In this document: positions 1 through 13,837 of the stretch, one piece after another
How positions within the stretch are numbered: position 1 is the first letter of the stretch
Layout: each line of letters opens with the position of its first letter
Assembly: GCA_938091905.1 (NCBI GenBank)
Contig: CALKOM010000037.1
Location: 1 to 13,837, forward strand
Direction of reading: 5' to 3'
Source: an uncultured Verrucomicrobiales bacterium
GTDB lineage: Bacteria > Verrucomicrobiota > Verrucomicrobiia > Verrucomicrobiales > DEV007
Length of the DNA: 13,837 nt
Notes under the pieces: model-generated
The model's input: only the letters and a program-made list of their open reading frames with translations
What the model was told of the DNA's origin: nothing
Databases searched by the model: none
Position numbers and translations under genes: made by a program

Positions 1-129
1 CGCATCACGTCGGGAAAGATTGAAGGATTCAACAATCTTGTTTCAAGAGTGGTGCATCGGGCCTGCGGAATCACTAACATGGATTACGCATGGTTGAAAT
101 TTCGGCAGCTCTCCATCCAGCAAACTTGA
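1..129 (+). CDS. ISL3-family transposase, C-terminal 42 aa (runs in from the left edge; not in the ORF track)
   Basis: Frame 1 reads RITSGKIEGFNNLVSRVVHRACGITNMDYAWLKFRQLSIQQT*, matching the ISL3 transposase C-terminal pattern T-x-G-x-x-E-G-x-N-N...R-A-x-G. Stop TGA at 127-129. Confidence 0.8.
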   Translation, partial: RITSGKIEGFNNLVSRVVHRACGITNMDYAWLKFRQLSIQQT

Positions 130-138
130 CGGAGCGCC
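1..138 (+). mobile_element. Right end of an ISL3-family insertion sequence
   Basis: The transposase stop is followed by ...GGAGCGCC (5'-GG terminus on the minus strand, as in ISL3) and then AT-rich AAACTAAA (139-146, candidate 8-bp target duplication), where symporter homology begins. Confidence 0.7.
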
Positions 139-611
139 AAACTAAAGAGCCCGTAAGAGAAGGGCTAGTAGCAATGCTCGGTCCAATCATTGATACGCTG
201 CTCATATGCACGGCGACTGCTCTAGCGATTTTAGTTTCAGGTGTATGGGAAAGTAGCTCGAACAATGGAGTAACTCTAACGGCAAATGCATTGTATGCCT
301 TACTGGGAGCACCAGGCCTCTTAGTCGTGGTAATATGTACCGTCTGTTTTTCAGTAACCACTATTATAACTTATTCATTCTATGGGAGTCAATGTGCGAG
401 CTACTTATTTGGCGCACGAAATGGTAGCAACTATCGCTGGGTATTTACCGGATTTATTGTGATTTCCAGCGTAATCTCCCTTGAAACAGCGATCAGCCTG
501 ATCGACATCGCGTTTGCATTAATGGCGATTCCAACCATGATTTCCTCGATGCTGTTGGCACCCAAAGTTAAAGCTGCTGCTGAGGACTATTTTTCGAGGC
601 TCCGGAGCTGA
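139..611 (+). pseudogene. 3' part of an alanine/glycine:cation symporter (AGCS/AlsT family), interrupted by ISL3
   Basis: TKEPVREGLVAMLGPIIDTLLICTATALAIL...FSVTTIITYSFYG...ALMAIPTMIS...LAPKV is the AGCS C-terminal third. The first 17 aa of ORF 90..611 are IS-derived and lack the expected GSAPIAHAAA motif. Confidence 0.85.
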
Positions 612-834
612 CGCTCGATTTTGTTCGTTGTCTTAAAATTATCCCAGGATGATGGGCATGGTTGTCCGCGTGTGCGGTGTCTGAAGTGGTTGCTCGAAAT
701 GCCGCGTTCTCCTACTGACTTATACGATCGCTGTGGAAACCATGAGGGTGAAGTGGTCTCCTTTTTGTAGCCAGTCTTTTCGTAGTTTTATTGTAGAGTA
801 TTCGTTAGACTCGTCGCGGTGCTTTGCGGCGGCG

Positions 835-1695
835 TTAGGCCGCCAGGGTTTGTGGTGAACCGTAGATTGACCACGGTGTCTGATACTTCAGATGCTGATG
901 TTTCCGCTGGTGGTTGTAGTAGCGTATCCATTCGTCAATGTGCGTCCTGAGCTCGGGGATGCTGTCGTAGCTCCAAAGCCTTGTTTTCTCAACCTTGAGG
1001 CTACGCCATAGGCGTTCGATGAAGACGTTGTCCATCCAACGCCCCTTACCGTCCATGCTCACCTTGATCCCTTTGGACTCTATCTCTTTCGTCCACTCTG
1101 CACTCGTGAACTGGCTTCCCTGGTCTGTGTTGAAGATCTTTGGCCGCCGCACGCTCCCAAGCGCCTTCGCCAGTGCTCGCAAGCACATCCCGGTATCCGC
1201 TGTGTTACTCAATTCCCAGCTCAGCACGGCTCGACTGTGCCAATCCATGACGGCAATTAAATAGGCGTGCCCTGTGGCCATTGGGATGTAGGTGATGTCC
1301 GTGCACCAGACCTCGTCCACCTTACTGACCTTTCGGTGACGCAGGAGATAAGGGTAGATTTTATGCCCTTTACCGGGCGCACTGAGCTGAGGCTTCGGAG
1401 CAATAGCTTCAATGCCCCTCGTTTTTATCAGACGACGTAGTCGCTTTCGTCCAATGGCGATGCCTTGATCTCGAAGCTCTCGGATAAGCTTCCGCTGTCC
1501 CAAGAATGGCCTGCGTGTGTGGAGTTCATCCAGACACTTCATCATCTTTCGATCCTTCAGCGAAGTCGGTGTTGGCTTCGATGTTAGGCGGTTGCAATTG
1601 ACTCCTGAAAGAGCACTATGCCTTCGTATCGAGAACTTGGAATGCTGGGTCTCGATCATGGCTTTTCGCTGAGATCGAGACCCAGCTCCTCGCAC
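835..1695 (-). CDS. IS3-family transposase OrfB (DDE integrase core)
   Basis: WCTDITYIPM, FNTDQGSQFTS and DNVFIERLWRSLK provide the D-D-E triad; C-terminal YYNHQRKHQHL. Probably expressed as the OrfAB frameshift fusion. Confidence 0.95.
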   Translation of the reverse strand: MRGAGSRSQRKAMIETQHSKFSIRRHSALSGVNCNRLTSKPTPTSLKDRKMMKCLDELHTRRPFLGQRKLIRELRDQGIAIGRKRLRRLIKTRGIEAIAPKPQLSAPGKGHKIYPYLLRHRKVSKVDEVWCTDITYIPMATGHAYLIAVMDWHSRAVLSWELSNTADTGMCLRALAKALGSVRRPKIFNTDQGSQFTSAEWTKEIESKGIKVSMDGKGRWMDNVFIERLWRSLKVEKTRLWSYDSIPELRTHIDEWIRYYNHQRKHQHLKYQTPWSIYGSPQTLAA

Positions 1696-2018
1696 TTTTT
1701 TTCGAGGAATTCCTTCTCGATGACGAACTGGCCAACTTTCTGCTCAAGGCGCTGTTCGTATTTTTCTTTGATCGCGAGCTCTGACTTTGCGTGATTCTTG
1801 TCCGCAAAGATTTCCGGCACGCGTCCCTCTAGCTCATTCTTCCATGGACTCACTTGCGTTGGGGCCAGCTCATTGGCTTGAGCAATCTCGTTGATCGTCT
1901 TGATGCCTTGGAGTGCTTCAATGGCAATTCGCGCGTTGAACTCAGGCGTGAGATGTCTTCTCTTTCCTTTCGTCTGTTTTGTGTGGGTTGACCACCACAG
2001 ACGGGTCTTCGAAATCAC
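1656..2018 (-). CDS. IS3-family transposase OrfA (HTH); true start uncertain, probably near 1973
   Basis: KRRHLTPEFNARIAIEALQGIKTINEIA...PTQVSPWK...LEQKVGQFVIEKEFLEKK is a typical OrfA HTH plus coiled-coil tail. Confidence 0.9.
   Translation of the reverse strand: MISKTRLWWSTHTKQTKGKRRHLTPEFNARIAIEALQGIKTINEIAQANELAPTQVSPWKNELEGRVPEIFADKNHAKSELAIKEKYEQRLEQKVGQFVIEKEFLEKKCEELGLDLSEKP
1695..1702 (-). promoter_or_regulatory. -1 programmed frameshift slippery site A7G
   Basis: The minus strand reads GAAAAAAAG at the orfA/orfB overlap (A_AAA_AAG heptamer), the established IS3-family recoding signal. Confidence 0.85.
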
Positions 2019-2055
2019 AATAACTACTTGGCTCCATCTGGGGCTACCACTTCAG

Positions 2056-2706
2056 TCAGGCCCGGTAGCCGACAATGTCGCCGCGCACCCCTTCTTTGCA
2101 AAAGTCTCCCGCGAATTCTGGAGGGGCTAGGACGGCAAGATTGGGGGATACTTTCCCCACATCGAGCCTGCCTTTCTACCGTTCTTTGAAGGCGTCCCAG
2201 AGTCGCTGTTTAATGGTCAGTTAGCTTCTCTATCCCACTGGGCTGAGGCGTTGGGACACAAGGAATCGGCAGACGACCCTCAAGCTTTTGCTAGAGTGGT
2301 TTTACAAGCCACGGCTCATGTGGATCCGTTGGCCCTTGGTTTGCATGAAGCCCTGCAGCGACCCAATTGCTATTGGGTTGACATTGATCCGCAGCAAGCG
2401 GCAGGACCTATTATTCCGCAGATCTCAGATTACAGAAATACCAAAAACGGATTAGTGTCTCTGTTATTAACGCGTGCAGTTGCCCACCTGGAATTGGACG
2501 ATAGTAAAGCGGCAACAAGAGAACTGCTCACAATGATCCAACTTAGCAAGATTCTTCCCTCTGATCTGAGCTTGGTCGGAGTATTGGTATCGACAACCAT
2601 CTCGCGAATTGCAGCAACTCACCTACCAGGGCTCTTGGTTCATCCAGGCCGGAGTGATCATGATTTGGCAAGGCTTGGAGAGGTTATCGAAACTTTTTCT
2701 CACTGA
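2056..2706 (+). pseudogene. Fragment of a hypothetical helical protein, cut by IS3 at the 5' side and by repeat copy A at the 3' side
   Basis: One frame runs from SGPVADNVAAHPFF through a single TAG (2128-2130) into GQLASLSHWAEAL and ORF 2251..2706 (LLTRAVAHLE...LSLVGVLVSTTISRIA). There is no start codon, and the stop overlaps the first base of the repeat. Confidence 0.65.
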
Positions 2707-2843
2707 CTCTTATGAAACTGGTTTGCACAACCCCGTTTCATCCATGTCTTTCCGAGGCCGTGGACTTGAGGGGCGCTGCTAGGAAATTGCTATTCTTCTA
2801 TGGGCTCAGATTCGCCGCATTGCCAGGGATTGGAGGGGGGTCA
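2706..2843 (+). repeat. Junction repeat copy A (72-bp left unit plus ~63-bp CTAG module)
   Basis: 2706-2777 is identical to 10979-11050. 2776-2838 matches 6424-6486 at 57/63 and 11049-11111 at 55/63 (manual count). Confidence 0.95.
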
Positions 2844-2875
2844 GCTCATCATGACCACGGAGTAGAGCCTTAGCC

Positions 2876-5143
2876 TTACTCGATAACGACGTCATCGATG
2901 TACCAGCCCGCTCCAACATTGTCGTCGCCATCTGCTAAGAGACGAAACTCAAGGATGATCTTCTGATTCCGAATCTCTAAGGGGAAGGTGATTTCGAGGG
3001 GAGTCCATGTCTCGGTGCGTCCTGAGAAGATCTCTTGGCGTGCGAAGATAGGTTCTCCGGCTTCGTTTAGAATCCGGAGTTGGCCCCCTTCCGCATCTTG
3101 AACGGAATCGATGTAATATTGAAAGCTCAGCTTTGGCCGTTTCACTTCGGTGAGATCGATCACAGGAGACCGCAGACTCGTCACCGAGTCGGGCGTGTAA
3201 TTGCCGGCAAGGTTCGTTCCCCAAGCATTCTCGCCGTTGGCTGCTGCCGTGAGCGTGTCTGTGTTAGGCGTTCCAAGTTCCCATTGGGTGTCACCTGCAG
3301 CCGTGTCCACAATCCACCCTTCGGCACCAGTCTCAAAGTCATCCGCATACGCAGCTGGAGGAGGGAAAATGGCCACTCGATAGTGTTGTTGGGGCTCCGC
3401 GCCGGCCGCAGTCGTGAATCGTAGTAGGCCATTATCGAATTCTGATAGGGAGGCGCTGTCATCGGCCACCCAATCGGTGAGATTCTCACTGCGTTGCAGC
3501 ACGTGGATGGCGTTTGCATCCAGTGTCACAAAATCGAACGTGTGTTCGGACGTGCCTACGTTTACACTGACAATCTCAAATGGCAAGGCAGGTCCGGCGG
3601 CCAAGTGATCCGTGCCTACCAGCTCCCATTGACCTGCTTCCACGTCACCGATCTTGGTGTCTTCGTCTGCGAGAAACTTGCCTTTTGCAAAGTACAATTC
3701 ACCATGCTTGCCACCACCGACGGCATCATACCAGAAGAACTCGATCGGGTAAGTGCCAGCCTCTGGGAAATTGACCACGGCGCGCGAGTTGGAGTCGTCG
3801 GTGACGCCTCGAAATCCGTACGTGTCAGGGGACAAGGCATCAACTTGCGCACGTCCAGCTTCTTCGCCAAATTCGACGCCATAAATTCGCAAGCCAAATC
3901 CATCAGCAGAATGCACGCCGAAGGTGTATTCTCCCGGCTCGGCAATGATAAGGTGACTTCTGTGTGAAACGATAAAATCTCTGCCAGTCCAAAGTAGGTC
4001 CTCGTCCAGCTCGACTTCTTCAGGCAACAGTTGCTGAGGCTCGAGGAATAATCCGCCATCCAAGTCGTTGACGACTGCTGCAAAGGTATCGAATACGCGG
4101 CCTGCAAAATCAGCATTGTCAGACGCCTGAAGTAAGGCAACGGCCGTATCGATGTCATCAGTGCTACCCGCTCCCCAAACATAGCGTACGCCCCACATCC
4201 CACCGATGCCATCGGGACCAACGAGCGGCGTATTGAACGGCATCAAGGTCGTATCCAGAACAAAGTTGCCATCGCCAGAGCGGGTCGCATCATTGCCATT
4301 CGTGTCTTTGGCGACCAGGTTGAAGGTGTGTGCCGTTCCGGGGTCCCAACTTTCAGTCGGCTCGTGGGCAATCAGAACCCCTCCTTCTAGATCAGTGATA
4401 GTAGGCACGACTTCGATCCCATCGACTGTGAGCACGACGGATTCCTTGTCGAGGATACTCTGACTAGAGTTCTGAATTTCGAAGCGCAATCCCTCTTGTG
4501 AACTTCTCGTAATCCGACTGACAAGCAGCAACTCAATGGCTCCGCCATCACCGGCTGTCTGCCTGATAATGATGCCACTGATACCACCACTGTTGTCTTC
4601 CAGATGCTTGTACCAAAGAGCCTCTCCGGCACTCACATTCACTTCTACCGTGGAACTGCCGCCCGCGAAACTTTCCGTATTCGCTTCGGCCGGTTCCTCA
4701 CCACTCCAAATCTTGGCGAACTGATCCGCATCCGTGGTTCGTCCTTCAAAAACCGTCACATTGTAAGTGCCTGCTGGTAAACCATCGATTCGCATCCGAG
4801 CTTCTGAGCCCGCGGCATCCGTATTCTTGAAAAAGTAGTCATCACGCGCTTCAACCGGCACTGTCACACTATCATACTCAGCGCCTTCATTGGGAGCCCC
4901 GCGATTGTTCGGTCCAAAGCCATCGTCCAGCGCGGTGATGGTGACACCCCCACCGAGTTCTACGGTCTCATCTTGATTCAACACATCAATCGAGGTCCAC
5001 GGTGCCCCAGGAGCTCCTGCGCCATTGCCTTCGTCCCCACCAAAGTCGATCAGGAAGTCAGCAGCTGGCGCAGCCTGAATCGCAAGGACTGCAAGCGCGG
5101 CGACGAGGCCGAGAGAAGAGCGAGATTGCTTGGTATGAGTCAT
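2876..5143 (-). CDS. Secreted multidomain protein (755 aa) with a PA14-like domain and a C-terminal MAM/immune-inhibitor-A-like jelly-roll domain
   Basis: ATG at 5143 gives a signal peptide MTHTKQSRSSLGLVAALAVLAIQAAPA-A. PA14-like GEYTFGVHSADGFGLRI...GTYPIEFFWY. C-terminal DDFETGAEGW...WELGTP...WGTNLAGNY...LRSPVIDL...GWYIDDV. Acidic composition. Confidence 0.8.
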   Translation of the reverse strand: MTHTKQSRSSLGLVAALAVLAIQAAPAADFLIDFGGDEGNGAGAPGAPWTSIDVLNQDETVELGGGVTITALDDGFGPNNRGAPNEGAEYDSVTVPVEARDDYFFKNTDAAGSEARMRIDGLPAGTYNVTVFEGRTTDADQFAKIWSGEEPAEANTESFAGGSSTVEVNVSAGEALWYKHLEDNSGGISGIIIRQTAGDGGAIELLLVSRITRSSQEGLRFEIQNSSQSILDKESVVLTVDGIEVVPTITDLEGGVLIAHEPTESWDPGTAHTFNLVAKDTNGNDATRSGDGNFVLDTTLMPFNTPLVGPDGIGGMWGVRYVWGAGSTDDIDTAVALLQASDNADFAGRVFDTFAAVVNDLDGGLFLEPQQLLPEEVELDEDLLWTGRDFIVSHRSHLIIAEPGEYTFGVHSADGFGLRIYGVEFGEEAGRAQVDALSPDTYGFRGVTDDSNSRAVVNFPEAGTYPIEFFWYDAVGGGKHGELYFAKGKFLADEDTKIGDVEAGQWELVGTDHLAAGPALPFEIVSVNVGTSEHTFDFVTLDANAIHVLQRSENLTDWVADDSASLSEFDNGLLRFTTAAGAEPQQHYRVAIFPPPAAYADDFETGAEGWIVDTAAGDTQWELGTPNTDTLTAAANGENAWGTNLAGNYTPDSVTSLRSPVIDLTEVKRPKLSFQYYIDSVQDAEGGQLRILNEAGEPIFARQEIFSGRTETWTPLEITFPLEIRNQKIILEFRLLADGDDNVGAGWYIDDVVIE

Positions 5144-5158
5144 GGTGGATTTGATAGT

Positions 5159-5213
5159 GATTATGATTATGATTATGATTGGGACTGACACTGACACTGG
5201 CACTGGCACTGAC
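5159..5213. repeat. Two adjacent hexamer tandem repeats, (GATTAT)3+GATT and (ACTGRC)5
   Basis: GATTAT x3 + GATT at 5159-5180; ACTGAC ACTGAC ACTGGC ACTGGC ACTGAC at 5184-5213, just upstream of the ATG at 5143. Confidence 0.9.
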
Positions 5214-5260
5214 GCACGGCACGCAAGAAAAGCACAGCCTGCGTTCACGACTGCATGATT

Positions 5261-5311
5261 GGAGTTCGCCTCAACTCCGACAAGAATTCTTGATCTCGAC
5301 CACTGTGGTCG
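5261..5311. promoter_or_regulatory. Cluster of three palindromes in a divergent intergenic region; candidate operators
   Basis: GGAGTT-N6-AACTCC (5261-5278), CAAGAATTCTTG (5281-5292) and CGACCAC-T-GTGGTCG (5297-5311), immediately upstream of the regulator ATG at 5333. Confidence 0.45.
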
Positions 5312-5332
5312 TTTGGGGTACAGATTGCCCAT

Positions 5333-6430
5333 ATGGATTCGATTCGTATTCACTCCCCGGCAGACCAGGTGGCCTCCCAATTACGGGAGCAGATTCTCAA
5401 GGGGAAACTGAGCGGAGAAATGCCAGGCATACACCAGATCGCGAAGGATCTGGCAATCGGCTCCAAGACCGTCATCGCGGCTTTAAAGATGCTAGAGCAC
5501 GATGGAGTGCTAGTGGGGCAGGGCCCGCGTCGACGGCGGCGAATAGTGTTGCCTGCGAGTTTCGCTCCACGTGCTCTACGGGTGGCAGTGCTACCCTTCG
5601 ATTCTCCGGCCCGAGGCACGGACTACTTCATTGAACTGCGTCACCTGCTTGAGGCAGCTGGGCACGCTCCCTTCTTTCCCGACAAGACCCTGACAGAATT
5701 TGGAATAAACATCGGCCGCGTCGCCCGCTTCGTTAAGAAGACCAAGGCAGATGCCTGGGTGGTTAGCGCCGGTGCACGGGAGGTGCTCGAATGGTTCGCG
5801 CAGCAAGAGACTCCTGCCTTCGCCCACTTTGGGCATCGCGTCGGCCTGCCGATCGCTGGCACCGGGCCGGACAAAGGGCCGGCCATCGCCGAGGCGACTC
5901 GCCGCTTACTTGCGATCGGACATCGCCGGATTTCATTCCTGTGTCGCCGTCAACTTCGTCTGCCGCAGCCTGTACTTGCCGTGCGCACCTTTCTTGGCGA
6001 GCTCGAGGCCGCCGGCGTCGCCACTGGCGCGTTCAACATGCCGGATTGGGAAGAGAGCAAAAAAGACTTCGGGAAACTCCTCGAATCGCTGTTCAGATCC
6101 ACGCCTCCCACGGCCCTAATCCTCGATGAACCGTTTCTCTACCATGCTGCTCATCACCACCTTGCCGGGTGGGGCCTACGAGTGCCACAGGACGTCTCGC
6201 TGATCTGCACTGACGCCGCCCCAGACTTCGCCTGGTGCCAGCCCTCAGTCGCCCACATCCGCTGGGATTACCGCATGGTGATACGTCGCATCGTGCGCTG
6301 GGCCAACAACGTCGCCCGAGGCAAGAACGACCGTCGGCAAACCTTCACCAAGGCCGAGTTTGTCGAGGGTGGCACGATTGGGCCCGCGCCAGTCCGAAAC
6401 CATCGTCCAAAGCGGACACGAAACTGCTAG
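5333..6430 (+). CDS. Transcriptional regulator with an N-terminal GntR-type wHTH and a LacI-like periplasmic-binding-protein effector domain
   Basis: ADQVASQLREQILKG...MPGIHQIAKDLAIGSKTVIAALKMLEHDGVL (GntR HTH); RRLLAIGHRRI, PPTALI, GLRVPQDVSLIC (LacI-type sensor); ends FVEGGTIGPAP. The stop codon is the TAG of repeat copy C. Confidence 0.9.
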   Translation: MDSIRIHSPADQVASQLREQILKGKLSGEMPGIHQIAKDLAIGSKTVIAALKMLEHDGVLVGQGPRRRRRIVLPASFAPRALRVAVLPFDSPARGTDYFIELRHLLEAAGHAPFFPDKTLTEFGINIGRVARFVKKTKADAWVVSAGAREVLEWFAQQETPAFAHFGHRVGLPIAGTGPDKGPAIAEATRRLLAIGHRRISFLCRRQLRLPQPVLAVRTFLGELEAAGVATGAFNMPDWEESKKDFGKLLESLFRSTPPTALILDEPFLYHAAHHHLAGWGLRVPQDVSLICTDAAPDFAWCQPSVAHIRWDYRMVIRRIVRWANNVARGKNDRRQTFTKAEFVEGGTIGPAPVRNHRPKRTRNC

Positions 6431-6494
6431 GAAATTGCTTTTCGTCCATGGGGTCAGATTCGCCGCATTGCTAGGAATTGGAGGGGCAATTTCT
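6424..6494 (+). repeat. Junction repeat copy C (CTAG module only)
   Basis: 59/63 identical to 11049-11111 and shares a trailing CAATTTCT with copy B. Contains TGCTAGGAA twice, with the CTAGs 44 bp apart (6427, 6471). Confidence 0.95.
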
Positions 6495-6620
6495 GCTTTC
6501 ATAGGTGTAATTATCGTGGATTTTTATTTTATGGGTGCTGAGATTGCTTTGCAGACTGCGCTTTTTGGTGCTTTATCTTGTGGGGCGTTCGTTCTGGCTT
6601 CTATAAGAGGTTGGCTATAG
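6495..6620 (+). pseudogene. Possible 3' fragment of a small membrane protein gene
   Basis: T-rich stretch reading AFIGVIIVDFYFMGAEIALQTALFGALSCGAFVLASIRGWL* (two hydrophobic segments), starting abruptly at the edge of repeat C. Confidence 0.35.
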
Positions 6621-6680
6621 CGAGGCAGCCATAAGCGACGAGGTGGCTCGTATTGGGTGGTAGGTTGGAACGGGAGCTTG

Positions 6681-6761
6681 GAGCCATTCTAGCTGGCCTT
6701 ACTCTCCCTTCTCCTCCTTGGATTAGCCTCCTTGTTCGCGGTGAGACGCCAACGCCGCTAA
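6681..6761 (+). pseudogene. Orphan PEP-CTERM-like sorting-signal remnant
   Basis: Translates as EPF*LALLSLLLLGLASLFAVRRQRR*: EP, then a transmembrane helix, an Arg cluster and a stop, with no upstream gene body. Confidence 0.6.
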
Positions 6762-6888
6762 CGCGATTCCAATTTTTCTTTTGGTAGGACGGAGGTGATG
6801 TTTATGACATCTACCCTTGAGAATCTGCACGCCAAATCGAGCAATGAGATGTTTGCGAATGTTAACATTAACAATATCGTATTAGAAA

Positions 6889-6937
6889 CTGCTAGAAACT
6901 TGCTTTTGGCGAGGGGGCTTTGAAGCCGGATTAGACC
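6889..6937 (+). repeat. Junction repeat copy D (diverged)
   Basis: CTGCTAGAAACTTGCTTTTGGCG...TTGAA..CG.ATT.GACC; 34/49 ungapped identity to copy E (9253-9301). Confidence 0.7.
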
Positions 6938-7061
6938 CAGAGGATAACAATCCAATCTAGGTCGAACCCATATTAGGGACAAAAAATCTCCCACCTATTT
7001 GATCAATCAAAAGCACGCTTTCGACCTAAATTCCTGGCCGCAACATCGCGAGTACCACGAG

Positions 7062-9248
7062 CTACTCGATTTCTAACAACAGCACTTCATGCACGTCCTC
7101 GATGAGCGCCGTGACTCCATGCTCGCTAAATTGAATATCTGTCCTTGCGCCAAACGCGAGGACTTGCTTCAAACGATCTTCACACTTGATGCGAACACGG
7201 TAGGGCGGAGTGTCCTCCATCATCGGCGGCAATACCGCAGTGCGCCCCTTGATGGGCGTGGTAGCAGAGGGTTCGATTCATGCGATAAAATGAACTCGTA
7301 AAGTGTTGCTTTCACGCGTGACCACAGATTCCACAAACGCTGGGGCTTCTACGGTGATCATCGGATCCGGTTGAAGGTAACGCATCGCGTTCGTCAAGAG
7401 ATGTCTCGCCTCAGAGATATGGAATTCACTCGTGGCTGCCTCGCCTGGAGAGCAGGCTAAGGTGACCACCTTACCACTCCCAATCTGATTGACTAGAATC
7501 GCAGGCACTAACAGCTTCGTTATATTCGCTGACATAGGAAAGTGCGTTCCCTCCTTACCCTCACGTTGCAACACGGCCCGATGCGGTGGAAGCAATTCGC
7601 CCCAGGCCTTGGCGGTGATCGGTTCGTAGACCACCGCGTTCCCATGGACTAGAAATGGCCAGTCAGCGGGAATACCTTTGGCGAAAGGTGAGTCACTCTC
7701 AGTTTTCTTGAAGCGGATATGACTATCCTTCGAATCCAGTGTTTGTTTCCAGCGACCTCCAATAAGCCTCTTCAGGGCCGACGCATCAAGCGGGTTGCCA
7801 TAGCGGTCATAAAGACCGGTTGCCCCAGTGATGATCGGGTCTCCTCCTGCTTCGACATACGCTGTGAGCGCGGCGACTTCGCTTTCTAACAGGATGCCGA
7901 TGTTAGGGAGCGTAACCACGGGGAACGACTGCAAACGTTCGAGCTTCGCGTTCTCATCGAGAACAATGCCCCAAGGAACATGGGCTTAGACGAATGCCTT
8001 GTGCGTTCCAAGGGCTCCTTGCCATGCCTTGGCCGCGTTTTCACGCCCCAACCAATCACGTGTGCGATGCGAGAAGTAGATCCCAACATCCGCATGCAAC
8101 GGTTGCCCAAAGTGCTTCCGCTTCTCGTCGGCTTCTTGGAACACCGTCGCGTGTCTTTGATAGAACACGGGATCAAGACAGCCATCATAGGCTGTCTTGT
8201 CGACCATGGTGCCAAACGCTCCGTGCGCCAACAAAGTCATGATTTCCCAGCGTAGGTCATTCAGAGGACGTGTTGTTTGGTCATGATAGTGACGCACGCC
8301 ACGCTGCATCACCACCTGCACGCGGCGCCCGTCAGCCGTCGCCCGATAGAACTCAGCGTTGAAGCCTACACCTAAGGCGCTGAAGGCCCACTGACCAGTT
8401 TCGCCGGTGATGAAATCCCCCGTCACGCCGTGCTGCACCGGTCGTTGTCCCACTTCAAAGGAGAATGGGGGATTGCCGTGATAGTTGAAATCAACTGACG
8501 TGTCCGGCCAATTCTCTTTCACATAGCGATCAAGCGCCGTTTCGAAAGCAGCACTGCTGTCATATCGAAACTCCATCACCTTCTCCCACTCTGCATCCCA
8601 ACTCAGTGCCTTAGGCATCGCATGCCCGTGCTTGTCTTTAAACCTAGCCTGACAATGTTCGCACCAGCATCCATAGGGAGGCCCAAAGCCTTGGTCGACC
8701 ATATCCAGGTGGAATCCATCAATCTCGTATGCCATCATTTCAGTTAGCAGTTGTTTCACATAGTCAATGTAAGGTGAGTTGAAACAGACTCGCTCAATGG
8801 GCTTCCCGTCCTTGTCGCGCATGCGCCAGTCTGGGTGTTCGTGTAGGGTGTGAGTCGGATACTGCAACACGCAATAGGCAATCACCGGCATCTGATAGGC
8901 CTTTGCGGATGCAACCGTTTCGCGTAGTAAATCGCGCTTACCCAACCCGGGAGCTTTGGGCTGAAGCTTCGAATTGTAGTAGGCGAAGACACCGTCTCTG
9001 GCCCAGATGACCATGTAATCGCAATGAGCAGCCGCCGCTTTCTCGATACATTCCTTTCCTTGGAATCTAGCCACGTAGCCAATGTCTGCGACATCACTTC
9101 CAAACTGGGCGACGGTTGGCCCCGTCTCGATCCCGACAAGTGCCTGCTCATACCAGGGGGCTTCTTGGCTGTAAGCTTGGGATAGACAGCTGCACCTGGG
9201 CGCAGCTCGGAATAAAGCTCCACTTACTCTCCTGACGCTAAACCTCGC
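7062..9248 (-). pseudogene. Glycoside hydrolase pseudogene (GHL6/alpha-L-fucosidase-like TIM barrel plus beta-galactosidase trimerisation-like domain)
   Basis: A single 729-codon frame: PWYEQALVGIETGPT...VIWARDG...CFNSPY...IDGFHLDM...GCWCEHC...; in-frame TAA at 7986-7988 and TGA at 7278-7280; resumes IEPSATTP...VLPPMMEDTPPYRV...EDVHEVLLLEIE* (7062). No in-frame start codon upstream of the conserved-looking N-terminus. Confidence 0.8.
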
Positions 9249-9252
9249 TCAG

Positions 9253-9313
9253 TTGCTAGGAAATAGCGTTTGGCGGGAAAGGGTTGAAATCGCATTGGAC
9301 CGGGGCGGAGGGG
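9253..9313 (+). repeat. Junction repeat copy E (diverged)
   Basis: TTGCTAGGAAATAGCGTTT...CGCATTG-N9-GGAGGGG aligns to copy C with one 2-bp gap and to copy D without gaps. Confidence 0.75.
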
Positions 9314-9452
9314 GTGAAAAGGGAGTTGATCACGTTCTTCCTCAACGATGGTGAGCACCTTTGACGACTCAAGCCTCCATGGATAGGCTGGGACGATCTC
9401 AGAAAATGAGCATTCCTCTACGCCGATGGAGACGCTATCGGTCGCCTTTCCC

Positions 9453-10943
9453 ATGCGTCCTTTCATCCCTCTACTGCTCGCCCTCCTGGTCACCTCGCTT
9501 GGCGCCGCCCCTCCACGCGATCACGTGCTCTTGATCACCATCGATGACCTCAATGACTGGATCGGGTGCCTGAGTGACAAGGACGCCACCGCAAAGAACG
9601 GCCGACTGACCGGTGAAGGGCATCCCCAAGCCTCCACTCCCCACATGGATCGTCTCACCAAACGCGGCGTGCTATTCACCAACGCCCATTGCCAGGCCCC
9701 CATCTGCCGGCCGTCGCGCAACAGCTTCATGTCCGGCCTACGCCCGACGACTTCAGGCGTCTATGGCAACCGGCCACAGTACGATGCGAAGGGCAAATAC
9801 CAACCCGGCAAGAGTCTGCCATGGATGACCCAGCGCTTTGAACAGGCCGGCTACAACGTCTTCACCGCCGGCAAGATCCTCCACGGCAGCCGAAACAAAA
9901 CGCTGGGCGGCACGCCCTGCTTCAAGACCGGCCAGGGCCCCTACCCTCCCAAGAAAATCGTGGTCCCAAAGGAAGTCACCCCCGCCAGCATCTGGGACAT
10001 CGGCGCCTACCCCGAAACTTCGGAACGCTACACCGACTTGCGCATCGCCAAATGGACCGCTGGCAACATCCGTAAGCCGCATCAACCGGAGGATGCTCCC
10101 CGCTTCATGGCCCTTGGCTTCTACAACCCGCACCTGCCCCTGTTCGCGCCGCAGAAGTGGTTCGACGCCGCACCGTCCAAAGGGGACGTGCTGCTTGGTG
10201 CCACCAAGGCCGACGACATGGACGACCTTTCGGCCATCGCCAAACGAATCGCCAGCCGGGTGTCTTTTCAAGCCCCTGCCGATTGGTCCCGTGAAAGCGG
10301 AGCAAACCTCCGCACCCTGACCCAGGCCTACCTCGCCTGCACTTCCGCCATGGACAACGCCCTCGGTGAAGTGATCGAGGCCCTCGATGAAAGCGACATG
10401 GCCGAGAACACCTGGATCGTCGTCTTCTCCGACCATGGCTGGCACCTCGGAGAAAAGGACCACGTTGCCAAACAAACCCTCTGGACCCGCTCAACCCGGG
10501 TCCCCCTGATCGTGGTGCCGCCCCAACGCATGAAGGACACCCCTCGCGGCCTACGCTGTGATCGCCCCGCCGAACTTTTGGACGTCTATCCCACCCTTGT
10601 GGATGCCGCAGGGCTCGACACCAAACCGACCGACGCCCGCCTCGACGGCTTGAGCCTGCTTCCGTGGATTGCCGAACCCTCGGCGGAAAAGGAACGCCCG
10701 GCCATCACCACCATCTACGCCCACAACCACAGCATCGTCGACAGCCGCTACCGCTACACCCGTTACGCCGAAGGCAGCGAAGAACTTTACGATCGCGAGA
10801 AGGACCCGCATGAGTTCGACAATCTGATCGCTCAAGCGAAAACCGATGAGGCCCTGCAAGGCGTCGTCAAAAAGCTCTCCGCATGGATCCCCAAGGACGA
10901 AGCCGGCAAGCCCGACCTGGTCGACGACCGGATCAAGCGTTAG
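9453..10943 (+). CDS. Secreted formylglycine-dependent (S1) sulfatase, iduronate-2-sulfatase/choline-sulfatase-like
   Basis: Signal peptide MRPFIPLLLALLVTSLGA; ITIDDLNDW; CxPxR motif CRPSRNSFMSG; GKILH; GFYNPHLP; FSDHGWHLGEK; ELYD. Visibly more GC-rich than its neighbours. Confidence 0.95.
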   Translation: MRPFIPLLLALLVTSLGAAPPRDHVLLITIDDLNDWIGCLSDKDATAKNGRLTGEGHPQASTPHMDRLTKRGVLFTNAHCQAPICRPSRNSFMSGLRPTTSGVYGNRPQYDAKGKYQPGKSLPWMTQRFEQAGYNVFTAGKILHGSRNKTLGGTPCFKTGQGPYPPKKIVVPKEVTPASIWDIGAYPETSERYTDLRIAKWTAGNIRKPHQPEDAPRFMALGFYNPHLPLFAPQKWFDAAPSKGDVLLGATKADDMDDLSAIAKRIASRVSFQAPADWSRESGANLRTLTQAYLACTSAMDNALGEVIEALDESDMAENTWIVVFSDHGWHLGEKDHVAKQTLWTRSTRVPLIVVPPQRMKDTPRGLRCDRPAELLDVYPTLVDAAGLDTKPTDARLDGLSLLPWIAEPSAEKERPAITTIYAHNHSIVDSRYRYTRYAEGSEELYDREKDPHEFDNLIAQAKTDEALQGVVKKLSAWIPKDEAGKPDLVDDRIKR

Positions 10944-10978
10944 GCAATCTCCACCCAGAGATCAGGCAACTGACTGCT

Positions 10979-11125
10979 ACTCTTATGAAACTGGTTTGCA
11001 CAACCCCGTTTCATCCATGTCTTTCCGAGGCCGTGGACTTGAGGGGCGCTACTAGGAAATTGCTTTTCGTCTACGGGGTCAAATTCGCCGCATTGCTAGG
11101 AATTGGAGGGGGTTCAACAATTTCT
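10979..11125 (+). repeat. Junction repeat copy B (72-bp left unit plus CTAG module)
   Basis: First 72 bp identical to 2706-2777; CTAG at 11052 and 11096; ends GGAGGGG-GTTCAA-CAATTTCT. Confidence 0.95.
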
Positions 11126-11160
11126 CTGGCTCCGCTTTGCGGGACCACTTAAGGGTTGAT

Positions 11161-13380
11161 CTATTTCGCGCTTTCACCCAGCACTTTGAAAAACTTCCGG
11201 GTCGTTTGCCATGGAATATAGGGATCAAAAACTTCCATTTTCTGAGAGTCCTCACGGATGTATTTTATTTCGCCGGGAAAGACGCTATACCAATTGACGT
11301 TGTCATCTGATGTTTACAACTGGAGTCTAAGATTGCCGGGATTCTCGACCCAAAACTGCTGGGGGTTGTTTGCTTGGTTGGTGGGTTGTGTGCTGATGTC
11401 TAGATGATGCACCGTCAAGGTCATATGTAGAGGCGCCGCGGCGAAGAACTCTGAGCCTAAATATGAGAAGGGTAGACTCTATGAGAAGGGTAGACTCTTC
11501 GCAGAAATCACGGCCTTCCCGGGACCAACAATCTGTATAGTGTCACGAGTGTCGCCGATCACCTTAGCCACACTAGGGTCGCTGCTCGTATAGTATACTC
11601 GCCCTTGAATAACGGATTGATTCCAGAAATCATCCGGGGGCACTAAAAGGGGCGCTAAATTGCCCGTCGAACGTGAATCGGTCTGCTAAGTTGCCTGACT
11701 CATCAAGGCCGCTCCAAAGCTCGATGGTTGGCATAAGACCCTCTCTCACTCCTACAACATCCCAAAGGCCCGCTACAAAGAGGCTGCCTAACACATAGTT
11801 TTTGCGATGTCTGATTGAGATTACTTGCTTTGGTCCAGGAAGGGAAGAATATGAAGGATCAGGCACTTCGGGCACCCCCACGTTACTAGCGGAATACGAA
11901 AACAGACCTTCCAATCGTATTCTGGAAAAGAATCATCGAGTTGATTCTTGAGCCGATCAGGATCTCCAACGTCGGGATTCGTATTGAAGATAAATCCATT
12001 AAGCGTCTCAAAGCCGCTGTCCACAATATTTTCAAAGTAATCCTGAACCTCAGAAACATTAAAGCTAGATTCGCTTGTGACATCATTGGAACCGAAGGTC
12101 ATCACGTGCAAGTCAGAATCTGGATAGCTCACTAATGTATCAAAGTTCCATGTGCTACTTTCACTCAACTTTACAGTCAATGGAGTAGCGCTGGGGCCTA
12201 TCGCAGGTGAGCTAAAGACAATAGTATCGATGTCTGCGTAATAGGGGGCCGCCACATTGTCGTAGATCGTGGCGAGGCGATTGGCTCGCGCCTGACCTGC
12301 ATCCGAGTTTGTAATGTCTAGAGCTGTGTTGCGAGCTAATTGGTAGAAATCGTCCTCCAAATCAGCAGGATTTGTCACGAATTTAAAATTCATTCCGATC
12401 AGTGTATCGATCAACCGTGGCCCAGGGCAATCCAACATAGCACTACCATACCTCCCCCAATCGGGCCCTCTAAAACGCTCGATGTAATCAATGGCCCATC
12501 GGTTTATATTACTAGCGTAATAACTGGGATTTTGAGCCCAAGTAGGCCCAAAAAGGACTATTAAATCAGTGGCTGCATTCAACCAAGTGAAATAGAATTT
12601 TCCCGGCGGACGATCATCTATAACCGGATACAGCCGCGACCAGTCTTCGTTCCACTTTGCATCCAGTGTCTTGGTTTCCGTTATTCTATAGTTGTCTTGG
12701 ACCGAAAAAACATCCGGGTAAAAACCAGCTTTGGAACCCGCCGGATATCCATAGGCAACCGCATCGGTTGGAACTGAATCCGGCCCCATAAATACGATCT
12801 TTCCACGAACTTCTGAAAGGGTAGGAATATACTTAATCAAAGAATCTTTCGTAACATCAAGCGCAATACCATTCCAGTAGGGAGCATCGATAGTTCTAAC
12901 TGCGTGAGCTGACGCTTTGCCGTCAGGTCGGAGGGTTTGTTCATTTGGCCAAATTCTTGTCCCCCCTGGAGGTTGATACAAGGCGTCATATTGTGCATGG
13001 ATCACTTTGAAAAGGACTTCAGCGGTAGTGGAGGGACTACCAGCGGTTTCAGAGAGCACCCTGCAATCAAGGATAATGGTTTCACCTGGGTGCAATGCTA
13101 GAACAAAAAACACTCGGCAACGAACTCCCTGTAGGTGCTGCCCATGTCATACTCACCATGGATGACATCGAACGTATCGCCGTCATGCTGAAGGCGCACG
13201 TCGAGGTGACGGATGCCGAAATTTAACATTTGGGTGATGCTGAGAACCTGTGTCTTGGCGAAATTTGCGAAGACTGTGACCTCAGCTTCTGAGGGAGTGG
13301 TCACAGATAAGGGTTTGTAGCCTCGTCCGGAGCCTATGTTTCAGCGCTCGCATTTCTGTCATCTTTGTCTCACGAGGCAC
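11161..13380 (-). pseudogene. Multidomain phosphatidylinositol-specific phospholipase C (PI-PLC X domain) protein with an Ig-like (Big_2) domain; multiply disrupted
   Basis: TQVLSITQMLNFGIRHLDVRL...HG, then after a frameshift (~13100) LALHPGETIIL...PTLSEVRGKIV...VQDNY (PI-PLC motifs). Further frame changes near 11900 and 11650 lead to YTSSDPSVAKV...IVGPGKAVISA (Big_2), FAAAPLHMTLTV and LQL*TSDDNVNW...RKFFKVLGESAK* (11161). 5' boundary approximate. Confidence 0.8.
11462..11497. repeat. Perfect 18-bp tandem duplication TATGAGAAGGGTAGACTC x2
   Basis: Copies at 11462-11479 and 11480-11497; the junction creates a minus-strand TAG (11479-11481) in the pseudogene frame. Confidence 0.95.
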
Positions 13381-13503
13381 TCATCGGTGAGAAACGAGTT
13401 TGCGGTGTAGTTGAATTTTAACTGCAATGAAACCATATTAATACGTAGTCAGACTTCCCTTGTCTATATCGAACCAGCCCCGTAATCTCCCTCACCTTAT
13501 CTC

Positions 13504-13837
13504 ATGAGCACTCGTCTCCTCGCTCTCTTCTTGGCTGCTGTCGCTTTGCCTGTTCAGGCCCGTGTCCTTCTCAATGAAGTGCATATCAACCCACCAAGTG
13601 CCTCAGACCAGACGCACCAGTACCTTGAGATCCTCACTGTTAGTGATTCGAATGTTCCCGAGGCGCAAACTCTGGGAAATTTGTCAGTGCTCTTTATTGA
13701 TTCCAATGGAATCACGGTGGGAGGTATCACTGAGCATGTGAATCTCAATGGATTGCAGACCGGTGCCAACGGTCTGTTGCTGGTTGGGTTGAATTTCGAT
13801 GCGGCCGTTCCATGGACGATTGCGGCGGAGACGGTCA
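13504..13837 (+). CDS. Secreted lamin-tail-domain (LTD)-like protein, N-terminal part (runs off the right edge; not in the ORF track)
   Basis: MSTRLLALFLAAVALPVQA signal peptide, then RVLLNEVHINPP..D..HQYLEI...LNGLQTGANGLLLVG; open to the window end. Confidence 0.8.
   Translation, partial: MSTRLLALFLAAVALPVQARVLLNEVHINPPSASDQTHQYLEILTVSDSNVPEAQTLGNLSVLFIDSNGITVGGITEHVNLNGLQTGANGLLLVGLNFDAAVPWTIAAETV

Follow-up and report, generated by a model that had tools for sequence, protein, structure and literature searches.

A stretch of 13,837 nucleotides (nt) from an uncultured Verrucomicrobiales bacterium (contig CALKOM010000037.1 of assembly GCA_938091905.1, positions 1 to 13,837 of the forward strand; the whole stretch is hereafter called the window) carries five copies of a short repeat, which we name A, C, D, E and B in their order along the sequence. 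These repeats probably represent an undescribed family of short, oriented, hairpin-less interspersed repeats of marine Verrucomicrobiales and not a capture platform, which is how an earlier reading of the same DNA (the original prediction) had interpreted them. A selfish interspersed repeat is indicated by the dispersal of the unit, the independent decay of its copies from one consensus, their preference for gaps between convergent genes and the presence of copies in dead genes. Many unrelated contexts together with star-like divergence are what is generally expected of an interspersed repeat, and both were found over the five window copies, six loci in other genomes and about 20 flanking contexts.

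Five co-oriented copies of one repeat family

A repeat search of the window found A (2706-2843) and B (10979-11116) as a direct pair of 138 nt with 93% identity, a 63-nt unit common to A (2776-2838), C (6424-6486) and B (11049-11111) at 90-94% identity, and a 23-nt head that occurs five times, at 2772, 6420, 6885, 9249 and 11045. The block CGCATTG-N9-GGAGGGG is found in A, C, E and B. All five copies lie on the + strand, and the five co-oriented copies with a common core that had been proposed were thus recovered at the places predicted for them. Successive copies are separated by 3648, 465, 2364 and 1796 nt, for a unit of 68 nt. Within the unit two direct TGCTAGG boxes lie about 44 nt apart; the motif TGCTAGR occurs nine times in the window, always on the + strand, against 2.2 occurrences expected, and none of 200 shuffles reached nine.

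The repeat exists in a short form of about 68 nt and in a long form of about 139 nt, the latter being the unit with an additional 5' left part of about 70 nt. A and B are both of the long form: the left part of A spans about 2706-2775 and its 68-nt unit 2776-2843 (+), while in B these parts occupy 10979-11048 and 11049-11116 (+). The first 72 nt of A and B are identical and all nine mismatches fall within the other 66 nt; with an even spread of mismatches, an identical left part would arise with p ~0.0015. The pentamer ACTGA (2701-2705) is a possible further 5' part of A and gives the TGA stop of the truncated open reading frame (ORF) to its left, and ACTGACTGCTA (10968-10978), directly 5' of B, looks like the remnant of a head. 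Copy C (6423-6490, +) is a short form with a shortened tail, and its head supplies the TAG stop (6428-6430) of a regulator gene at 5333-6427 (+). Copy D (6888-6955, +) is diverged and well kept in its 23-nt head alone; copy E (9252-9316, +), also diverged, sits in the divergent gap between a broken glycosidase gene and a sulfatase gene.

Searched with a profile of A, B and C, the window gave E values of ~1e-25 for each of these three, 0.053 for copy D and 0.31 for copy E. In local alignments D and E scored 15-20, compared to a shuffle mean of 7-8 (standard deviation ~1.5; 300 shuffles) and shuffle maxima of 11-16, and they are above chance, the A-D pair alone merely tying its maximum (16). D and E are similar to one another as well (D-E score 20; the C-D score is 19). 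A, B and C are strong copies, and D and E are old, diverged members of the same family. Over the 68 columns of the unit, identity to the family consensus is 91% for A, 93% for B, 91% for C, 59% for E and 51% for D. Mismatches to this consensus number 6/68 in A, 5/68 in B and 6/68 in C, with only 0-1 in common. The window copies diverge independently from a common consensus, in a star-like decay like that of relic insertions. Copy C is 98% identical to copies at a locus of another species (L004, described below); with the copies of the other species keeping 93-100% of the consensus, C is closer to them than to A or B.

The unit is dispersed among unrelated contexts in other genomes

A three-box pattern scan of 185,579 species-representative genomes returned six hits. 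Two of them, L001 and L004, overlap on one contig; four contigs belong to two other Verrucomicrobia metagenome-assembled genomes (MAGs); and one hit, in Clostridium, escaped the profile and was taken as chance. The scan returned none of the window's own copies, and the source genome of the window thus lies outside the scanned set. The unit occurs at six loci on these four contigs, where it matches the consensus at 93-100%, the copy at 9998-10065 of L004 being equal to it, and when the whole window was compared with these loci by blastn, the repeat unit was the sole match. According to Pfam, the neighbouring genes include an RND efflux operon, an ion channel, a HAD hydrolase, a sulfatase and Hsp70-like genes with DUF3731/DUF2760, as well as a multihaem cytochrome, an S41 peptidase, an alcohol dehydrogenase, a sensor domain and a beta-lactamase-like gene. 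These are ordinary chromosomal contexts in two other MAGs, and the idea of a dedicated capture array at one hotspot was not sustained.

Among 31 ORFs scanned at the other loci (some overlapping or spurious), one transposase-type match was obtained, to a truncated IS110-family gene in L002; no integrase was found among these 31 ORFs, and no recombinase-type gene at L003, L004 and L006. On three of the four MAG contigs a copy lies at most 300 nt from the contig end, as would be expected where a multicopy repeat breaks assemblies. Tandem or partial copies occur at L004 13539-13792, L006 292-446 and L002 3092-3214, and also in P0006 and P0040 (P-numbers designate public protein predictions that read through the unit). 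The duplicated period at L006 takes in 13 nt of flank, which points to slippage or unequal exchange and not to transposition. At L004 13539-13792, the end of the contig, truncated heads are followed by complete units in a nested arrangement with an 82-nt period, which may represent a genuine minisatellite or a tangle in the assembly.

Searches of public protein predictions gave eight matches for the ORF across B, four for the repeat-encoded part against longer proteins and 13 for the ORF across C (12 examined). About 20 distinct flank combinations were left after removing the window's own junctions (P0001 and P0039) and duplicates, and the reading of the unit is unchanged in most of these contexts. 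The long form recurs in several predictions with an identical join between left part and unit. The other genome loci lack the A/B left part, save for a 14-mer where the IS110 gene fragment of L002 ends. One frame of the unit reads as a hydrophobic, signal-peptide-like stretch, and in P0038 this frame continues without a break into an ITAC motif resembling a lipobox. Gene callers thus prolong real genes across the unit, which makes it a source of mis-annotated N termini (P0038 and P0049).

Nine of the gaps that contain copies could be classified by type: six are convergent, two tandem and one divergent, and the convergent share of 6/9 compares with about one quarter expected with random gene orientation. 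The unit supplies a stop codon at three sites (C, A and L004b). Profile searches found the copies co-oriented on each multi-copy contig, with five loci in the window, two in L004 and two in L002. The GC skew of the element strand, calculated for five contigs, is inconsistent in sign and revealed no consistent link to the direction of replication.

Junctions at the copies include true breakpoints

The copies belong to one family and are located at junctions, as proposed, and A adjoins a gene that is cut at about residue 290 of about 500. What is left of this gene is an internal fragment (2059-2705, +) of about 500 codons' worth of coding sequence in its complete form, cut on its left by an IS3-family insertion sequence and on its right by A. 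By phmmer the fragment aligns to about residues 100-290 of its homologues; the 25 matches are the window's own ORF (P0010, 99% identical) and 24 homologues, 18 of which are 414-563 amino acids long. In tblastn the homology begins at about 2056-2068, the boundary of the IS3 element, in most alignments, and ends at about 2676-2700, just before A. The remaining 3' third of the gene was found nowhere else in the window, including after A, C, D, E and B (tblastn, E < 0.04). A simple insertion of the segment from A to B into the truncated gene is ruled out, since the 3' part was not found after any copy.

Cut genes adjoin the unit elsewhere too. At L002 the final third of an IS110 transposase gene (model positions 225-342 of 343) begins directly after a complete unit, and in P0037 a pair of units gives way at once to homology with the window sulfatase, starting from its residue 348 (E 1e-12). 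At L004 a unit has on one side a scrap resembling a signal peptide and on the other the last ~45 residues of a membrane protein of the polysaccharide-synthesis type (E 0.0014, a weak match). Several predictions allow flanks to be compared. P0001 repeats the junction of sulfatase, B and right flank with 98% identity on two contigs, and P0002 has the right flank found at B with a different left side. P0036 and P0005 have the left flank and the long form in common with P0035 and differ from it in their continuation, P0005 and P0035 being on contigs of 43.6 and 104.9 kb. P0039, from an independent contig, reproduces the C junction with both flanks at 94%. Chimeric assembly at C and B is argued against by P0039 and P0001, which reproduce these junctions with both flanks, and some repeat junctions are true breakpoints. 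The original prediction suggested comparing strains for gain or loss of modules exactly at the repeats; the related contigs share one flank of a copy and differ on the other (P0001/P0002; P0036/P0005 versus P0035).

The last codons of the IS110 gene fragment of L002 (L002 1487-1960) are identical over 14 nt to the reverse complement of the start of the long form (window 2705-2718 and 10978-10991), a match for which we estimated a chance of ~0.04. It is either a chance match or, judged from these letters, a hint that the left part of the long form may derive from an IS110-type end.

The unit differs from known repeat and cassette systems

The unit forms no hairpin: single-sequence folds of both strands gave z-scores of -0.5 to +1.6, and the alignment fold obtained with RNAalifold reached -1.8 kcal/mol without covariation. 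An Rfam scan of the whole window returned one match only, at chance level (E 0.89). The repeat search found no inverted pair inside or at the ends of any copy, that is, no terminal inverted repeats, and by eye the unit ends have in common only a TG...CA-type dinucleotide. At the copies with DNA read, no target duplication of 2 nt or more is visible in the flanks of the filled sites. A promoter and terminator scan of positions 2600-11300 placed none within the copies, with counts at or below those of shuffles. Copy A matched nothing in plasmid and phage collections by blastn. The ends of the IS3-family element, considered as a source of the repeat, bear no similarity to it. By direct count the minus-strand transcript of the unit is C-rich.

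The features tested as defining attC sites, repetitive extragenic palindromes (REPs) and REPINs, classical miniature inverted-repeat transposable elements (MITEs) and clustered regularly interspaced short palindromic repeats (CRISPRs) were not found, and the unit therefore falls into none of these classes. It works most like REP/BIME, MITE and BOX/MIRU-type repeats, while by their defining features it is a member of none. REP, BIME and REPIN elements are short, non-coding, multicopy and mosaic, lie in intergenic positions after gene 3' ends and can seed rearrangements; REPs are imperfect palindromes of 20-40 nt, often in inverted pairs tied to a RAYT transposase. With the REP/BIME elements of enterobacteria and the REPINs of Pseudomonas the unit shares its short, non-coding, multicopy, intergenic, mosaic and rearrangement-seeding character; unlike them, it has no palindrome and no GTAG/CGTC tag, and all its copies on a contig are direct. 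PMC3733652 defines REPs by a GTAG/CGTC tag and reports palindromic REPs in the verrucomicrobium Opitutus terrae, among others. No description of the present unit was found in the literature searched on Verrucomicrobia interspersed repeats and MITEs.

MITEs such as Correia/NEMIS, ERIC and RUP resemble the unit in size (~70-140 nt), in being non-coding, in their consensus-centred decay and in having short and long forms; they carry terminal inverted repeats and target-site duplications, neither of which was found for the unit. BOX elements of Streptococcus pneumoniae and MIRU elements of Mycobacterium tuberculosis are modular or tandem units of 40-100 nt, gene-oriented, sometimes overlapping stop codons and variable in number. 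Tandem or partial units (L004, L006 and L002) and unit-supplied stops (C, A and L004b) are points of likeness; the sequences are unrelated, however, and the copies studied here are mostly single, many of them between convergent genes and not inside operons, and BOX has inverted boxA/boxC ends, unlike the unit. Some loci have tandem units, most copies are single, and no variation in unit number between strains was seen.

Integron attC arrays also consist of co-oriented repeats that separate small unrelated gene modules, but the unit has no attC fold, no R or L boxes and no IntI, attI or Pc, and its neighbouring genes lie on both strands while its sites are dispersed singly and decay. CRISPRs have regular repeats of 23-50 nt with spacers of similar size, compared to a 68-nt unit at spacings of 465-3648 nt. 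The original prediction had set aside both attC sites and CRISPRs, and this stands: there is no fold, the attC boxes are absent on reading and the spacings are irregular. Elements of the IS110/IS1111 type insert in one orientation at a short specific sequence, often within repeats, without inverted repeats or long duplications. The truncated transposase gene beside one copy and the left part attached at a fixed point of the head recall them; however, no intact element or bridge-RNA region was found, and the L002 fragment stands after a complete unit, which it leaves unsplit. This 3' gene fragment, found beside one copy, is all there is of an IS110 element at the loci, and none occurs in the window.

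Genes and mobile elements of the window

The left end of the window carries the 3' end of an ISL3-type transposase gene (1-129, +), a weak match (transpos_ISL3, E 0.015, model positions 335-366 of 370), and a 5'-truncated sodium:alanine symporter gene that extends to 611 and covers positions 236-383 of the 392 of the Na_Ala_symp profile only. The IS3-family insertion sequence follows at 678-2058 on the - strand, with orfA (1659-2018), orfB (838-1695) and 24-nt inverted ends; it is supported by matches to rve and HTH_Tnp_1 and to transpos_IS3 (E 7e-72). As read from the sequence, its flanking triplets CGG and GGC differ and form no direct duplication. Its left flank is the end of the symporter fragment and its right flank begins at about residue 60-80 of another gene. 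The differing triplets and the broken genes at both flanks suggest that the IS3 element itself lies at a deletion or rearrangement junction.

To the right of A come a gene for a secreted PA14-like protein (2879-5143, -), the gene of a GntR/LacI-type regulator, whose stop lies in the head of C, about 0.6 kb of gene scraps (about 6490-7060) with copy D inside, and a glycoside-hydrolase-like pseudogene (7062-9223, -) with GHL6 and the GH42 trimerisation domain GH42M, in at least three frames. An intact sulfatase gene (9426-10940, +) precedes B, which is followed by a gene with several frameshifts and no family match (11161-13113, -). The layout given in the original prediction is mostly right, as regards the left fragment, the secreted protein, the regulator and the sulfatase; the glycosidase is broken into at least three ORFs. 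The label PI-PLC that it gave to the frameshifted gene finds no support in Pfam, NCBIfam or PDB sequences, and the one lead to PI-PLC-X, a weak one, comes from Atlas (0.79). The same gene contains a perfect 18-nt tandem duplication at 11462-11498. At 13504-13836 a further secreted protein starts with a signal-peptide-like N terminus; its 111 readable residues have no Pfam or NCBIfam match. Genes for secreted or glycan-related proteins follow one another along the window. Two adjacent hexamer microsatellites (TGATTA x3.8 and ACTGAC x5, perfect or near-perfect) occupy 5158-5213, within the divergent gap that separates the PA14-like gene from its regulator gene; they begin directly upstream of the PA14-like start codon, and from their sequence they could be a slippage-prone, phase-variable promoter or leader.

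GC content varies between modules and genes from 0.45 to 0.63, in agreement with the visible differences in composition noted originally; it also shifts within the A-C module, from the PA14-like gene to the regulator gene, a boundary that carries no repeat. The distance to the 3' end of the next minus-strand gene is ~33 nt for A, ~110-125 nt for D and 45 nt for B, and these three copies do face the next gene end at about 30-125 nt, as described. Proximity to a recombinase or tRNA, put forward originally as a point to test, was not observed: no tRNA was found in the window or at four other loci, and no integrase beside the copies, the IS3 element and the ISL3 remnant being the only recombinase-type genes of the window. 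The window, in which five repeat copies occur together with two insertion-sequence remnants and no fewer than four broken or truncated genes, reads as a decaying, rearranged accessory region under relaxed selection.

Discussion

In a family of interspersed repeats, new copies, all near one consensus, would be laid down by an enzyme that is presumably encoded elsewhere in the genome. Copies would survive chiefly where the harm they do is small, at convergent gene ends and in dead genes, and would subsequently decay. Co-oriented, near-identical copies may offer portable homology or may give rise to adjacent deletions of the transposition type, and such deletions would put copies at junctions of unrelated or truncated genes. 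The window would then be an accessory region under relaxed selection in which copies pile up. Several points weigh against this explanation. No filled and empty version of one site was seen among the contigs compared, and neither a target duplication nor a candidate transposase was found. Co-orientation is strict though the flanking genes alternate, with a chance of about 1 in 64 over three contigs. Copies look clustered, two of the four other contigs having a second locus within 4 kb, which could mean either that copies are very numerous or that they form genuine local arrays. The near-perfect conservation of the unit over many contexts could mean selection for function, and an identical left part in front of differing units hints at a second, site-specific event at the unit head.

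Part of this evidence would fit an oriented site-specific capture array, with the unit or its TGCTAGG head as the crossover site, a recombinase elsewhere and modules of one to three genes added successively. Copies are co-oriented on every multi-copy contig, modules of one to three genes also lie between copies in L004 and L002, and modules contrast in GC. New and partial copies begin sharply at the head, the long form resembles a 70-nt insert exactly at that point, related contigs show alternative flanks, and a fragment of a transposase gene of the IS110 family, whose members are RNA-guided and site-specific, adjoins one copy. We nevertheless consider such an array unlikely. Elsewhere the copies are mostly single and between ordinary chromosomal genes, and no recombinase lies within the 13.8 kb studied here or within up to 10 kb on three of the four other contigs. 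Identity to the consensus has fallen to 51-59% in D and E, and the independent, relic-like decay of the window copies from the consensus speaks against the maintained recombination sites of the original prediction. Genes are cut in mid-sequence at copies, unlike in a clean site-specific exchange, and GC shifts inside a module, between the PA14-like gene and the regulator, with no copy there. The modules themselves are largely pseudogenes and fragments beside insertion sequences, which suggests loss and rearrangement more than the oriented capture of cargo. That prediction named random scatter of the copies as evidence against itself; scatter was largely found (six MAG loci, about 20 flank contexts), while co-orientation persists on each contig. 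A related proposal takes the TGCTAGG-headed unit as the landing or crossover site of an oriented recombination system, possibly an RNA-guided one of the IS110 type, that would insert the 70-nt left parts and modules of one to three genes at the unit head and so form a non-integron gene-shuffling platform. The co-orientation, the clustering, the sharp head with its identical left part and the IS110 14-mer leave this proposal a small probability, and we judge it very unlikely.

Selection on a cis element at gene 3' ends, such as a factor-dependent terminator, an insulator or a paired TGCTAGG site bound by a protein, would account for a unit that stays 93-100% identical to the consensus in two other species and over many metagenome contexts, and that is enriched between convergent genes and near stop codons. 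On both strands its RNA shows unusually little structure (z up to +1.6), and its minus-strand transcript has the C-rich character of Rho-loading sites. Within the window, however, copies decay freely; copies lie inside dead genes and beside truncated ones, tandem and partial copies exist, one copy sits in a divergent promoter gap and no terminator-like or promoter-like site was found within copies, all of which makes a selected cis element an unlikely explanation. An assembly chimera, in which a metagenome contig joins different genomes at a repeat common to co-occurring species, would explain unrelated modules of different GC. The unit is nearly unchanged between species, contigs break at it, GC steps occur at C, E and B, and the nested partial copies at the L004 contig end look like graph tangles. 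A chimera is highly improbable all the same, given that the junctions at C (P0039, 94%) and B (P0001, 98%, two contigs) recur with both flanks in other assemblies, that D and E are unique sequences and cannot mis-join, and that the junction between the truncated gene and A must be real on the gene side.

A new integron-like system is thus not supported on present evidence; the breakpoints at the repeats are nonetheless real. In practice, the unit breaks metagenome assemblies and creates spurious ORFs. To our knowledge, nearly all described short interspersed repeats of bacteria are either palindromic, as REPs are, or have inverted ends, as MITEs do. If our interpretation as an interspersed repeat is true, a strictly oriented, unstructured family, near-invariant between species and located repeatedly at one-sided truncations and strain-specific breakpoints, would suggest a so far unrecognised route by which repeats spread or genomes are reshaped, in a phylum that is important for the turnover of marine polysaccharides.

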